NCBI GenBank assembly: GCA_031459875.1 | Contig: JAVKHQ010000009.1 | Location: forward strand, 24,116-88,115 | Origin: Candidatus Fervidifonticultor sextus | GTDB taxonomy: Bacteria > Sysuimicrobiota > Sysuimicrobiia > Sysuimicrobiales > Humicultoraceae | Length of the DNA stretch: 64,000 nucleotides | Direction of reading: 5' to 3' | Shown here: piece after piece, positions 18,893 through 23,251 of the stretch | Layout: each line of letters begins with the position of its first letter | How positions within the stretch are numbered: the stretch's first letter is position 1 | Notes under the pieces: model-generated | What the model was told of the DNA's origin: nothing | Database searches by the model: none | The model's input: only the letters and a program-made list of their open reading frames with translations | Program-made: the position numbers and the translations under genes

Positions 18893-19639
18893 TCACCCTG
18901 CAGGGCGTGGCCCCACGTGCGTCCCCCGGCGGAGCGCCCATACCCCCCAGATGATCAGGACCATCGCCGGAATCTGCCCCAGCGTCAGGGGGCCCAGCGC
19001 CCGCAGGTCGCTGCGCAGCATGTCCAGGAACAGGCGGCCGATCGAGGTGGGCACCACGATGCCCCAGAAGACCTGGCCGTCGAACCTCCGGGTTGCCGCC
19101 ACCCTCCGCGCGTAGAGCAGGATGCCCGCGGCGAAGAGCATCTCGTAGATCTGCAGGGGATGGCGTGGCACATCGGGCGCCGTTGCGAACCGGACGCCCC
19201 ACGGCAGCGTGGTCGGATCGCCGTAGAGCTCCCCGTTGATGAAGTTGCCGAGGCGGACGAAGATGTTGCCGATGGGAATCGCCCAGCCGAATGCGTCCGC
19301 GAAGGTCCACATGGAGATGCCGCTGCGCCGGGAGGCCCAGGCCACGTAGAGCAGGCCGGCGGCGATGGCGCCGTGGGAGGTCAGCCCGCCCTGGTCCACC
19401 CGGACGACGTCGATCAGGTGGCGGAACTCGCCCGGGTGGGAGAGGACATAGCCCACCCTGGCGCCCACCAGGGCCGCGAGCGTGAACCCGACGGTGGTGC
19501 GGTCGAGGACCGCCGGGGGAATCCCGATGCGGGGTCCGTAGCGGTAGGCGACCACCATGCTGAGCGCAATGGTGGTCGCCAGCAGGAGGCCGTACCACCG
19601 CACGGCCAGGGGGCCGATCTGGATGATCACGGGGTCCAC
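18893..19639 (-). CDS. lgt: Prolipoprotein diacylglyceryl transferase
   Basis: IGPLAVRWYG, GARVGYV, RLGNFINGELYG, HPLQIYE. Confidence 0.93.
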   Translation of the reverse strand: MDPVIIQIGPLAVRWYGLLLATTIALSMVVAYRYGPRIGIPPAVLDRTTVGFTLAALVGARVGYVLSHPGEFRHLIDVVRVDQGGLTSHGAIAAGLLYVAWASRRSGISMWTFADAFGWAIPIGNIFVRLGNFINGELYGDPTTLPWGVRFATAPDVPRHPLQIYEMLFAAGILLYARRVAATRRFDGQVFWGIVVPTSIGRLFLDMLRSDLRALGPLTLGQIPAMVLIIWGVWALRRGTHVGPRPAG

Positions 19640-19649
19640 AGCCGGGGTC

Positions 19650-19679
19650 AGTCTAGCACCGGCTGTCCGGGCCGCTCAA
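19650..19679 (-). promoter_or_regulatory. Putative sigma70 promoter of lgt
   Basis: TTGAGC-18 nt-TAGACT with extended TG on the minus strand, just upstream of the lgt start. Confidence 0.5.
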
Positions 19680-19688
19680 GGTGCCAGG

Positions 19689-19815
19689 GGGGTACTTGAT
19701 AAGAAGCCTGAAACGTCACCCCCTCCATATTACGGTGTCAAGAAGGCAGGGCATCCTGGCCGTGGGCGTTCCCTCTGGGGCTGCTTCCCGGGGTCCAACG
19801 TATGGGCCGCCTCCA
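19689..19815 (+). repeat. Left terminal inverted repeat (127 bp)
   Basis: GGGGTACTTGATAAGAAG...GGGCCGCCTCCA; roughly 88-90% identical by eye to the reverse complement of 22481-22608. Confidence 0.92.
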
Positions 19816-19902
19816 GGATCGGCGGTGGTTGTTTGGGGTGCACCTGAATATTGTCCGGGAAGAGAACGCCGTCTCCGTAGGAGCTCCTGGCCGCGCGAGA
19901 GA

Positions 19903-21274
19903 GGTCAAGTGTCAGATTTCCTGTAAAAGTTTCGGGCCTGGGTCATGCTACTTCACCTTCCTCCCCAGCCTGGTCACACGGTGCGGTCTCGCATGACGCA
20001 GTACGCTGATCCCCAACTCCTGGCGGAGCTGCCGCAGCTGCTCACGGTGCCGATCGATCATCGGGATCCGGTGCCCGCGCTGGCTCGCCCGGACCAGGGT
20101 GGCGTAGACGAGCTTCAAGCAACTGCGCTCATCAAAGAAGCGCGGGATGATCTTCGTCCGTCGGCGCTCCTCCAGAAAGCTGCGCTCGATGAGGTTCGTG
20201 GTGCGGACGTGCTTGCGGTGCGCGGCGGGCAACCGCAGGTGCGCCAGCGTGGCGTCTGGGTCATCCGCCAGCGACGCCATGGCGGCAGGAAACTCCCACT
20301 CAAAGCGCGCCCGCGTGGCTTGCAGGGCCTGCTGGCCGGCCTCGTACGTCGGGGCATCCCGCACGCCCACCAGGTGCGCCTTCACCTCGGCGCGGGCATA
20401 CTCGGGCACTTTGGCCAGGACGTTGCGCATCTTGTGGACCCAGCAGCGCAGCCGCAGACTCTTCGGCCAGATGTCCCTGATCGCCGCACCAGCCCCGGCG
20501 CCCCGTCGCTGGTGACCCTCACCGGCGTGCGCAGCCCGCGGCGCACCAGGTTCCGCAGCATCGCCAGCCAGGCCCCGTAGCTCTCCTGATTGCCCAGGGG
20601 CAGGTGCAGCAGCACCTTGCGCCCATCGGCCAGGATCGCCCCAGCGCACCGCAGCGCCTCGGCCGGGCCGCCCTGCAGCCGCAGCGACTCGTAAATCGCA
20701 TCCAGGAAGCGGTACTCGACCGCGAAGCCCGACAGGTCCCGCTTGGTGAACGCTTCGTAGTCTTCCCACAGGCGGTCCGTCAGTTCGCTCACCGCGCTGG
20801 CGCTCACCAGACAGCGGCCCGTGCCGTCCCGGAGCGCGTCCTCAATGTCGCGCGTGCTCAGGCCCCGCGCATCCATCTCCGCGACCAGCCGCTGCAGCAC
20901 ATCGGTGTGCCCCCGCAGGAAGGTCAGGAGCTTCGATTGGAAGGGTTCCGGCGTCTGCCGGACTTGCGGGAGCTGCGGGGATCTCGCCTTCCGCCGTGCG
21001 CCCGCGCCCCGGTTCGTACCCGGTGCGGTACCCACGGTGCGGCTGGCCTCCGCGGTGGCGGACGTAGCGTTCCCGACCCAGGAAGTCCGTCACCTCCTCT
21101 TCCAGCAGCTCCTGAGCCAGCCGCTGGGCGCCCAGGCGGAGCAGGGTGCTGGTCACCTCAGCCCTGCCATCGACTCCGTCTCTGAGGCCGCGATCAATCT
21201 CTTCCCGACCACGCCGGCTTGGTGCTACCTTGGGCATAGGTCTGGGCTCCGCGCCGGGATCTGAGGAGTGTAAC
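19903..21274 (-). mobile_element. IS256-family insertion sequence, degenerate
   Basis: Carries a mutator-type transposase pseudogene; downstream end reads ...TTTACAGGAAATCTGACACTTGACC; upstream end uncertain and no TSD found. Confidence 0.75.
19948..21237 (-). pseudogene. IS256 (mutator) transposase, frameshifted
   Basis: Motifs spread over three frames: LEEEVTDFLGRERY..YRTGY; RGLSTRDIE, FLDAIY, SDGAPGL; CWVHKMRN, RTTNLIERSFLEERRRTK. Confidence 0.9.
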
Positions 21275-21281
21275 TGTCCCA

Positions 21282-21960
21282 TCGCTATTCGAAGACGCGC
21301 CTGAGGACGGTGTCTGTTCAAGGAGAAGGCTCGATGACTTCCGCACCGAGGCGGACGTCCGCAATCTTCTCGGCACCCTCTACAGAGCGGTCCGTGACGC
21401 CAAGCGCACCTACGGCGTGGTGCACTTGTTGCTGTCGGGCGGTCGAAAGGTCATGAGCGTGGCAGCGATGGTGGTGGCGCAGCTTCTGTTCGGACCCGAG
21501 GATCGCGCCTGGCACCTTCTGAGTGAGGGTTGGGCGCCCGGAGCACCGCGGAAGATGCACCTGGAGCTCGGCGACGTCGTGCACCTCGTACCGATCCCCG
21601 TCCTGCGGTGGACCGACTCAGGGGTAATGCTGGCAGCACTCGCAGTGCTCGACGATCCCTTGGAGGCTATCCGTCGCTACGAGGAGATCGTCCGAGGCGA
21701 GCGTATGCGGAGCCGGCGTGGATTCGTCGGGCGGTGGCTTACCCTTGCGGAAGGGGACGTGGCGCGTCTGGCCTGCCGGGGGCTCGACAACGCCGCGATT
21801 GCCCGTCGCCTGGGCCGCAGTCCCAGGACCGTGGCCAACCAGCTTACCGCCATATGCGACAAGCTGGAAGACTGGCTTGGCTTCCAGGGCCCCCGGCTGA
21901 CCGGGCCCTGCTGCTGGCTGAACTCGCCCCGTATTTCGAGCTCGAGAACGTGTCTAGAAC
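21282..21960 (+). pseudogene. CRISPR-associated Csx14/NE0113-like (CARF-related) protein with C-terminal LuxR-type HTH; 5'-truncated and frameshifted
   Basis: LDDFRTEAD...LYRAV...VHLLLSGGRKVMSV...AQLLFGPEDRAWHL, then LTLAE..VARLACRGLDNAAIARRLGRSPRTVANQLTAICDKL. Confidence 0.7.
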
Positions 21961-22066
21961 GGAGGACGGGAACAGGTCCCCAAGCAGAAGGGTAAACGCT
22001 TCTCATGCGCGGTGGGCCAAGGGCGGCTAATCTCCTCCCGAAGACATCGTCGGGGAGTGCGAGGAA

Positions 22067-22230
22067 GTGCGGTACCGGGCCTTGTTGCAGGAGGTAAGTG
22101 CCTTCGAGGTCGGGCGCTACAAGGTCCGGTGGGTATCGGATGCCGGTGGGCGCTTGCCGTGCTTCCTCGGCCCTACCTTCAGAGGAGGTTTGGGCCATGT
22201 GCTACGCCGCACGGCCTGCCCCCTGGGCAG
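22067..22230 (+). pseudogene. cas6: Cas6-family endoribonuclease, N-terminal fragment
   Basis: SD GAGG plus GTG; LPCFLGPTFRGGLGHVLRRTACP matches the LP.y.GstlRG.fG..lrr..C N-terminal pattern; coding signal is lost after about 55 codons. Confidence 0.6.
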
Positions 22231-22302
22231 CCGTGGCAGCTGGAAAAACCGAGACCCGAATTGCCACTGGGCCCGGTCAGATGCGCTAGGCGGACCGTTG
22301 GG

Positions 22303-22460
22303 GTGAAGCGAATCGGGCTTTCCCCAGACAAGCTGGCCTTCTACGACGCGCTGGCCGAAAGCCAAAGGCCTCCAGGCACTGCTCGTTGCTGGACAGGCAA
22401 GAGAAAGCGACGCTGACCGTTCTCGAGCAGGTAGAGACCCTTGCTGAGCTTTGGGTACGA
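22303..22460 (+). pseudogene. hsdR: Type I restriction enzyme HsdR C-terminal (DUF3387-like) remnant with internal deletion
   Basis: IGLSPDKLAFYDALAES followed in another frame by DRQEKATLTVLEQVETLAELW, both typical of the HsdR C-terminus. Confidence 0.65.
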
Positions 22461-22480
22461 GCGGTCCAAAGGCTCCTGTT

Positions 22481-22608
22481 TGGAGGCGGCCCACACATTG
22501 GACCCCGGGAAGCAGCCCCGGAGGGAACCCCCACGGCCAGGGTGCCCTGCGTTCTGGACACCGTAAATGGAAGGGGTTTGACGTTTCTGACTTCTCATCA
22601 AGTACCCC
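22481..22608 (-). repeat. Right terminal inverted repeat (128 bp)
   Basis: Reverse complement reads GGGGTACTTGATGAGAAG...GGGCCGCCTCCA. Confidence 0.92.
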
Positions 22609-22684
22609 CTCAAGGTCCCAGAGGTCTGCAGGGTGGCGGCCAGGTCGAGAGGAAGTCTGGCATCCAGAAGGGAGGGGCACGGTC

Positions 22685-23251
22685 GTGAGCACGCCGCCGT
22701 CGGATCCGATCCTGCTCCTGGGCGACCCCCGACTGCGGATCGTCTGCGCGCCGGTGGCCGACCTCCGCGATCCCGTCTTCCGGAACCGGGCCGCCCGGCT
22801 CCAGGCCGCGCTGGCGCGGTTCCGCGCCGAGCACGGCTTCGGCCGGGCCATCGCCGCCCCCCAGATCGGCATTCCGAGCCGCTTCGTGGCCATGGATCTG
22901 GGTTCCGGCCCCATGCTCCTCGTCAATCCCGAGATCACCTGGACCAGCGAGGAGACCTTTACCATGTGGGACGACTGCATGTGCTTCCCGTGGATGCTGG
23001 TCCGCGTCCGCCGGCACCGCTCGATCTCGGTGCGGTTCGCCGACGGGGAGGGCCATCTCCACGAGTGGCCGCGGCTCGACCCGGCCACCTCGGAGTTGCT
23101 CCAGCACGAACTCGACCACCTGGACGGCATCTTGGCCATCGACCGGGCGCTGGACCGCGAGGCCATCGTCAGCCGCGCCGTCTTCGAAGCGGACCCCGGG
23201 AGGTTCCGCTCCCAGGTGGACTACGTGGTCGATTCGAAATCCACCGAGTGA
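22685..23251 (+). CDS. def: Peptide deformylase family protein
   Basis: GDPRLR, GRAIAAPQIG, LVNPEI, DDCMC (variant of EGCLS), LQHELDHLDG. Confidence 0.85.
   Translation: MSTPPSDPILLLGDPRLRIVCAPVADLRDPVFRNRAARLQAALARFRAEHGFGRAIAAPQIGIPSRFVAMDLGSGPMLLVNPEITWTSEETFTMWDDCMCFPWMLVRVRRHRSISVRFADGEGHLHEWPRLDPATSELLQHELDHLDGILAIDRALDREAIVSRAVFEADPGRFRSQVDYVVDSKSTE

Follow-up and report, generated by a model that had tools for sequence, protein, structure and literature searches.

A probable transposon relic with long terminal inverted repeats and defence-gene debris in the lgt-def spacer of Candidatus Fervidifonticultor sextus

We analysed a 64,000-nucleotide (nt) stretch of contig JAVKHQ010000009.1 of Candidatus Fervidifonticultor sextus (the window; positions count from its first letter). 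Here the essential gene lgt and the gene def, which encodes a peptide deformylase paralog, are divergently transcribed, and the spacer between them holds two inverted copies of a 128-129-nt sequence, each bordered on its outer side by a copy of the same short word. The region 19688-22609 is very probably what is left of a formerly much larger cargo transposon with terminal inverted repeats, now a dead shell. The flanking genes, the putative lgt promoter and the ends of the element are the following:

18893..19639, minus strand: lgt (prolipoprotein diacylglyceryl transferase), left flank, intact (Pfam LGT, E 3.3e-53)
19650..19679, minus strand: putative lgt promoter, assigned by conservation, with -35 TTGAGC at 19674-19679 and -10 TAGACT at 19650-19655 (extended TGCTAGACT to 19658)
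19675..19687: left copy of the target duplication, (C)TCAAGGTGCCAG, overlapping 4-5 nt of the -35 box; single copy in the G002 empty site (L033)
19688..19815, plus strand: left terminal inverted repeat, tip GGGGGTACTTGAT (repeat search, BLAST, alignment)
22481..22609, minus strand: right terminal inverted repeat (repeat search, BLAST, alignment)
22609..22621: right copy of the target duplication, (C)TCAAGGTCCCAG, with one mismatch to the left copy
22685..23251, plus strand: def (peptide deformylase paralog), right flank, intact (Pfam Pep_deformylase, 1.5e-32; 94% identical ortholog beside lgt in G002)

Terminal repeats, target duplication and the empty site

The repeat search returned two arm pairs, 19720-19815/22481-22576 (96 nt, 89% identity) and 19688-19723/22574-22609 (36 nt, 86%), which together form one inverted repeat. 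When 19688-19816 is globally aligned with the reverse complement of 22481-22609, the arms are identical in 116 of 131 columns; the differences are 11 mismatches, two indels inside the alignment and a gap at one end. The first arm has a single other match in its own genome (G000; 3.05 Mb, 67 contigs), and this match is the second arm (BLAST, 89% over 128 nt, E 4.4e-42); the next-best match has an E value of 0.03. Each arm has the tip GGGGGTACTTGAT, that is, five G in both arms followed by TACTTGAT (a GGGGGTA start), so that the 3' ends of the element read ...GTACCCCC-3' and finish in oligo-C. GAAACG is found at nt 22-27 of the arms. No internal repeats of at least 7 nt were found inside the arms, and a search of Rfam gave no family at E ≤ 1.

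The words that abut the arms, CTCAAGGTGCCAG at 19675-19687 and CTCAAGGTCCCAG at 22609-22621, match at 12 of 13 positions, or at 11 of 12 if the first C is counted to the arm. Because the fifth C of the arm and the first C of the word are indistinguishable, the duplication is either 12 or 13 bp long; a length of 14 bp would require one more mismatch. An earlier sequence-only reading of the window had described the arms as inverted copies with about 14 differences and the flanks as matching 12/14 or 11/12. The alignment, with its 15 non-identical columns, agrees with the first description, and the flank counts are correct.

That reading had also set a test beforehand, namely a relative with an empty site holding a single copy of the target. 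Orthologs of lgt are present in all 34 relatives searched (34/34), and the closest of them, in genome G002 of the same genus, lies beside such a site. The lgt-def spacer of G002 has no insert and includes the word exactly once (...GGCCGCTCAAGGTGCCAGAGGTCTGC...). It aligns with the left flank of the window up to the word and with the right flank from the word onward; the distance between the two genes is about 110 bp, and the lgt and def proteins are each 94% identical to those of the window. Therefore, 19688-22609 was genuinely inserted and duplicated its target on entry, and the empty site bears out the proposal of a larger transposon that duplicated a long target and has since collapsed to a shell. 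The tally of lgt orthologs, like those of Cas1 and PolB in the phylum and in the Acidobacteriota given below, includes two unpublished genomes (G013 and G144), on which no claim rests.

The occupied locus is present in three runs, all from one hot-spring study, and one of these, X1, may be the source of the window itself. Contigs that were assembled independently from a second run, X2, span both junctions, the left one over 19300-19932 with 3 differences and the right one over 22380-22791 with none, and thus the structure is not an accident of assembly. In the three runs the arms are covered to the same read depth as the flanks, and no loose end at 19688 or 22609 was found among those listed for the runs (84 further loose ends lie beyond them). 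Parts of the stretch are uncovered in run X3, from which no inference is drawn. Dispersed solo repeats or miniature inverted-repeat transposable elements without a duplication, which the sequence-only reading had itself named as the alternative, were rejected: the genome includes only the two arms, their read depth is that of the flanks, and the duplication is present.

The insertion point lies at a conserved sequence upstream of lgt. The arrangement CTTGAG, 17-18 nt, TGCTA(C/G)ACT and then 10-11 nt to the start codon was observed in 10/16 lgt upstream regions of the family, G000 included (window 19640-19680, minus strand; loci L033-L046). From this conservation we infer a -35 box, an extended -10 box and a leaderless-type start; in the window the spacer between the boxes is 18 nt and the start codon lies 10 nt past the -10. 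A consensus promoter scan did not call this promoter (8/12 matches, under the threshold), so its assignment comes from conservation. On the lgt strand the duplication reads CTGGCACCTTGA(G) and covers the first 4-5 bases of the putative -35 hexamer, TTGA(G), which places the lgt-side cut inside the hexamer. The duplication rebuilt the hexamer, leaving lgt with a complete putative promoter. One insertion cannot show a preference for -35 boxes.

The element entered the lgt-def spacer after its lineage split from the sister species. Divergence between the arms (11.5%) is close to that of the four-fold degenerate sites of lgt and def between G000 and G002, where 25 of 253 differ (9.9%). If the arms were identical on arrival, these values are consistent with an insertion at roughly the time when the two species separated. 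A single base of the 12-13 in the duplication has changed between its copies.

The deformylase gene next to lgt represents a second paralog, whose G002 counterpart (C2:24661-25221) is 94% identical. This paralog is also present beside lgt, at 65% identity, in two genomes of genus g4 (G008, G018), and four other genomes of that genus encode only a def of 31-37% identity located elsewhere.

Debris within the repeats

The interior of the element is about 2.9 kb long. It was compared with 94 genomes, which are the whole phylum as searched (one class, one order). Five features were recognized between the arms:

19816..19902: 87-bp stub between the left repeat and the insertion sequence, with no match in the 94 genomes of the class and phylum
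19903..21250, minus strand: IS256-family insertion sequence (IS) with a frameshifted transposase, truncated by about 90 bp at its right (transposase 5') end (Pfam, homology limits)
21330..21995, plus strand: C-terminal part of a gene for a CARF (Csx14/Cas_NE0113-like)-LuxR-type helix-turn-helix regulator, with the N-terminal ~164 codons missing (Pfam, BLAST)
22094..22219, plus strand: start of a Cas6-family gene, 42 codons long (tblastn with the Cas6 of G040, DNA matches)
22270..22413, plus strand: hsdR fragment (C-terminal domain of the R subunit of type I restriction), frameshifted, reading toward the right repeat (DNA matches, BLASTP)

The transposase of the IS lies in at least two frames, and two open reading frame (ORF) pieces match Pfam Transposase_mut (E 2e-24 and 2e-21). 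Elsewhere in the phylum, other genomes have copies with 70-76% identity, all of which cease to match the window exactly at 19903 and 21250. The intact copy at L067 continues for about 90 bp past the point that matches 21250 and bears there an inverted copy of the 19903-19942 end. These sharp limits, together with the inverted end of its own, point to a separate, secondary invader that had two ends and has since lost one, and that is not the mobilising enzyme of the element. The same family is common to at least 8 genomes of the phylum (loci L064-L068, 70-76%), and G000 includes only the one truncated copy.

The remaining pieces derive from defence genes. The regulator fragment matches Pfam Cas_NE0113 (9.4e-18) and GerE (4.9e-5), and NCBIfam cas_csx14 at 3.9e-13, which is under the cut-off. 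It keeps residues 165-352 of a full-length gene in G040, at 78% identity, and its DNA is 73-77% identical to genes in G040, G042, G045 and G012. Full-length relatives encode a LuxR-type helix-turn-helix fused to a CARF domain that matches Cas_NE0113 at up to 1.7e-45 and has Csx14, under the cut-off, as its closest NCBIfam model. The gene order in G040 is the CARF gene, a 136-codon gene and a Cas6-family gene (Pfam CRISPR_Cas6, 1.4e-15). The 136-codon gene is deleted in the window, and the Cas6 stub corresponds to residues 1-42 of the G040 Cas6 (74% identity, E 2.5e-13, tblastn). The hsdR fragment is 76-78% identical in its DNA to four genomes; BLASTP gives 1e-8, Pfam on the fragment only 0.012, and its counterpart in L091 matches T1RH-like_C at 6e-132.

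None of the CARF-LuxR, Cas6 and type I restriction fragments is found at the empty site of G002, and no interior DNA recurs elsewhere in G000. At three loci with hsdR homologs no sequence resembling the right arm was found, the local alignments scoring 12-14 where shuffled sequences score 10-15. In relatives, the neighbourhoods of the CARF gene are varied (urease genes, a cytosine methylase, Cas6), as is the case for genes of defence islands. The sequence-only reading had described the interior as decayed defence genes with an IS256 and had stated that no transposase of the element's own remains; both statements stand, the only transposase between the arms being that of the invading IS256-family element. 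It had also suggested type III CRISPR cargo. This is not supported, since beside the CARF-LuxR fragment and the Cas6 stub the element holds no effector gene (Cas10, Csm/Cmr).

The combination of a CARF-LuxR gene, a 136-codon gene of no family and Cas6 recurs, with no effector genes nearby, at L093 9006-11538 (G040) and L094 9430-11206 (G042). Outside the window, G000 includes a CRISPR array at a contig edge (C25:41-300; 36-nt repeat, 4 copies), with no Cas1 in the genome, and a second Cas6-like gene (C59:6270-6872).

Candidates for the mobilising enzyme

Other copies of the ends were searched for in several collections. The 12-mer tip with at most one mismatch has 12 matches in G000, none with a partner or an extension. 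The search of 60 relatives, later widened to the full set of 94 genomes, gave nothing beyond a chance match of 21 nt in G012. Plasmids and phages gave no match to the ends by sensitive BLAST, and viral contigs gave 0 matches to each of two patterns. Two scans used one exact pattern each and may miss diverged copies: the 19-mer tip had 5 chance matches among 185,579 species (one genome per species), none extending or having an inverted partner, and the tip had 18 matches in the JGI metagenomes with no true end among them. Twelve of these 18 are one conserved sequence common to their contigs, which we took as a gene, and two share no more than 21-26 nt and lack an inverted partner. The full-length copies that a BLASTN search with the repeat was expected to reveal in this genome and its relatives were thus found neither in G000 nor among the 94 genomes, and the undescribed mobile defence element that the sequence-only reading had inferred would be without an intact copy there. 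The element would now be immobile, as there is neither a second copy nor a matching enzyme in its genome.

The ends were also compared with those of casposons, transposons defined by Cas1 and PolB genes. In the published figure of casposon ends, families 2 and 3 begin GGG(G)(T/A)A, with GGGGTA in MetLum-C1 and NitAL212-C1, and most have, about 20 nt from the tip, an A-run that leads into CG or TG (Krupovic et al. 2014; PMC4046053). The same source gives repeats of 25-602 nt (116, 134 and 602 nt in three cases) and target duplications mostly of 14-15 nt (median 15, range 1-27), and places all four bacterial or environmental family 3 casposons in intergenic DNA (PMC4046053). The 5'-GGGGTA tip and 3' oligo-C of the relic resemble those of NitAL212-C1, MetLum-C1, MetArv-C1, StrAlb-C1 and AceAut-C1, and its GAAACG corresponds to the A-run with CG (PMC4046053). 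Its repeat of 128-129 nt falls inside the published range; its duplication of 12-13 bp does too, below the usual 14-15. Long terminal repeats and a long target duplication are common to both, as are an intergenic target and one base that can be assigned either to the repeat or to the duplication; casposons may also hold an internal parasitic IS and cargo of the restriction-modification type (PMC4046053). Read on the other strand, the duplication of AceAut-C1 begins CTGCCA and ends in the -35-like TTGACG (PMC4046053). On the same reading that of the relic begins CTGGCA and ends TTGAG. The casposase of A. boonei needs only the 3' pentamer TCCCC and tolerates oligo-C slippage (PMC6614799), and the M. 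mazei casposon ends finish in CCC-3' and are joined with a 14-bp offset (PMC6977970). Both arms of the relic have the 3' oligo-C end (5'-GGG tip), a feature not unique to casposons.

Among the enzymes that can be named, a Cas1-type casposase is the strongest candidate, since published casposons agree with the relic in tip, repeat length and duplication length alike, and it may, tentatively, have made the insertion. A casposon origin is plausible, with the balance lying clearly on the other side; the published end sequences strengthen it as a lead, and it is not a membership, since both defining genes were looked for and are absent. The fuller proposal, a fossil Cas1-driven transposon that carried CRISPR accessory genes (CARF-helix-turn-helix, Cas6) and type I restriction cargo and homed to a -35 box, we consider rather doubtful. 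The sequence-only reading had likewise called the element possibly casposase-driven while noting that no casposase or PolB was left. The analysis of the interior confirmed the latter, and the former continues to draw on end sequence, repeat length and duplication length.

A number of observations weigh against these proposals. Apart from the IS256-family element, no remnant of Cas1, PolB or another transposase, stubs included, was found between the repeats (Pfam on interior ORFs, DNA matches). GGGG tips are a hallmark of Tn3-family repeats too, so that the tip alone does not discriminate. The genome itself, which is 96% complete, has no Cas_Cas1 match at E ≤ 0.01. Cas1 is encoded in 16/94 genomes of the phylum and PolB in 44/94, never on one contig, giving no sign of circulating casposons; no casposon was seen in the 94 genomes. 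No collection searched holds a second copy of the ends, which therefore cannot be linked to any enzyme, and three interior stretches (19816-19902, 21251-21329 and 22220-22269) have no match in the 94 genomes. Casposon ends were compared by eye, post hoc and without a statistical test, for 11 published pairs. The duplication of 12-13 nt is shorter than the usual 14-15, by 1-2 bp, and terms for the CARF regulator and Cas6 (and HsdR) are absent from the 2014 casposon annotation tables (PMC4046053).

The sole PolB gene of G000 lies on contig C1 (C1:99517-101880), is also present in the sister species and has no Cas1 nearby. More generally, the family B DNA polymerase ORF of the 44 genomes (about 750-800 amino acids) is not beside Cas1 and looks chromosomal rather than casposon-borne. 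Weak Cas1 matches in the phylum include one in G012 that lacks flanking inverted repeats and one in G030 that was taken as part of a cas operon by gene sizes alone. We also sampled 301 Acidobacteriota genomes, 39 of which encode PolB and 102 Cas1. Among the matches listed, none of the 39 (0/39) has Cas1 on the PolB contig within reach (12 weak Cas1 matches lie beyond these), and no pair of repeats with a duplication was found at 10 PolB loci and 8 weak-Cas1 loci of this sample. As no bacterial casposon with a PolB-Cas1 pair was found in the 301 genomes, the comparison of ends draws on the published figure only. One acidobacterial locus (G355:C1:5628654-5638484; L138/L139) has a 164-bp inverted pair, 91% identical and 9.8 kb apart, around a PolB gene; the pair has no flanking duplication, and the only Cas1-like match of that genome lies 3.5 Mb away.

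The most telling feature for the mobilising enzyme is the length of the duplication. Target duplications are 5 bp long in the Tn3 family and in Tn7/Mu-type elements, 8-9 bp in IS256 and 10-13 bp in the IS4 and IS231 groups. To our knowledge only these last two groups reach 10-13 bp, and their tips differ from those of the relic. A DDE-type transposase, either of an undescribed family or atypically related to Tn3 (GGGG tips) or to the IS4/IS231 groups, could have mobilised a conventional transposon, cut-and-paste or replicative, with defence genes as cargo. We give this explanation a chance only slightly short of even, the remainder beyond it and the casposase falling to other enzymes. The GGGG tips typical of Tn3, the 10-13-bp duplications known for IS4 and IS231 from ISfinder, and the lack of casposons in the 94 genomes all favour it. 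However, no DDE family is known to combine GGGG tips, repeats longer than 100 nt and a duplication of 12-13 bp: Tn3 makes 5 bp, and IS4 and IS231 have CA or CT tips. Moreover, no DDE_Tnp_Tn3 transposase was found in the element or in G000, and similar tips are absent from the 94 genomes, where the 21-nt tip with at most 3 mismatches had 3 single matches versus 7 for the reversed control.

The relic shares with the Tn3 family repeats that begin with GGGG, cargo and, in some members, long repeats, IS1071 having repeats of about 110 bp. The contrast that the sequence-only reading had drawn with Tn3 is thus weakened for repeat length and holds for the duplication, which the empty site shows to be 12-13 bp as against 5 bp. 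Gutted, non-autonomous derivatives such as the IS231-derived insertion cassettes also combine intact-looking ends and a duplication with the lack of a working enzyme. However, those cassettes are recent and have autonomous partners, whereas the relic is single-copy, about 11% decayed and without a partner in the collections searched. As in the promoter-homing TnGBS/ISLre2 elements, the insertion point is tied to the -35 of a putative sigma-70-type promoter that is preserved; TnGBS-type elements insert at a distance of 15-17 bp upstream of the -35 and make 9-bp duplications, whereas the cut of the relic lies inside the hexamer.

It is improbable that a site-specific (tyrosine or serine) recombinase inserted the element with the 12-13-nt word as its att core. 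One core at the empty site and two around the insert would also resemble attB, attL and attR, but 128-nt inverted repeats abutting the core are not known as a feature of integrase islands, and the site is a promoter spacer rather than a tRNA gene or another usual att site. There is no integrase fragment inside the element, the word lies beside no other island in the genome, and the ends have only two copies.

Still less credit is due to the interior IS256-family transposase as the element's own enzyme, in the manner of a long-repeat Mutator-like element. It is the sole transposase gene between the repeats, and eukaryotic Mutator elements do have long repeats and 9-11-bp duplications. Nevertheless, the homology of the IS copies stops at 19903, 87 bp inside the left repeat, and at 21250, and the IS has its own inverted end of about 40 nt, while the copies in relatives lack the 128-nt repeat. 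Membership of the whole element in the IS256 family was rejected as well: the IS ends (19903, 21250) lie inside the repeats, and the outer duplication is 12-13 bp and not 8-9. Finally, an assembly or binning artefact or chance repeats can be set aside, for although the assembly has 67 contigs and may be a metagenome bin, both junctions recur in the separately assembled contigs, the repeat pair has an E value of 4.4e-42, and the clean empty site of G002 matches the duplication base for base.

Reconstruction and meaning

The observations suggest the following course of events for the transposon relic. The element came in through a staggered cut 12-13 bp wide in the lgt-def spacer, and repair gave the flanking duplication; on the lgt side the cut lay within the putative -35 hexamer, which the duplication restored. 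The attacking ends were probably the two 3' ends, ...GTACCCCC-3', and the defence genes would have arrived as cargo. The IS may have invaded later, and subsequent deletions would have removed the transposase, most of the cargo and one end of the IS. An insertion into the -35 box would be tolerable because the duplication restores the promoter. The practical value of the element is limited, as it is single, old and enzyme-less.

If its ends are those of a casposon, CRISPR-associated genes and a Cas1-type transposon would have been joined in one mobile unit, which bears on the exchange of parts between casposons and CRISPR systems. Casposons would then be extended to a new, small hot-spring bacterial phylum, an added case of promoter (-35) targeting would be at hand, and a casposon would have served as a vehicle for defence genes, CRISPR parts included. 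Regardless of a casposon origin, the locus is a documented example of a defence island that arrived by transposition and decayed to a shell, and an example of a tolerated insertion into a putative -35 box in which the target duplication itself would restore the promoter.

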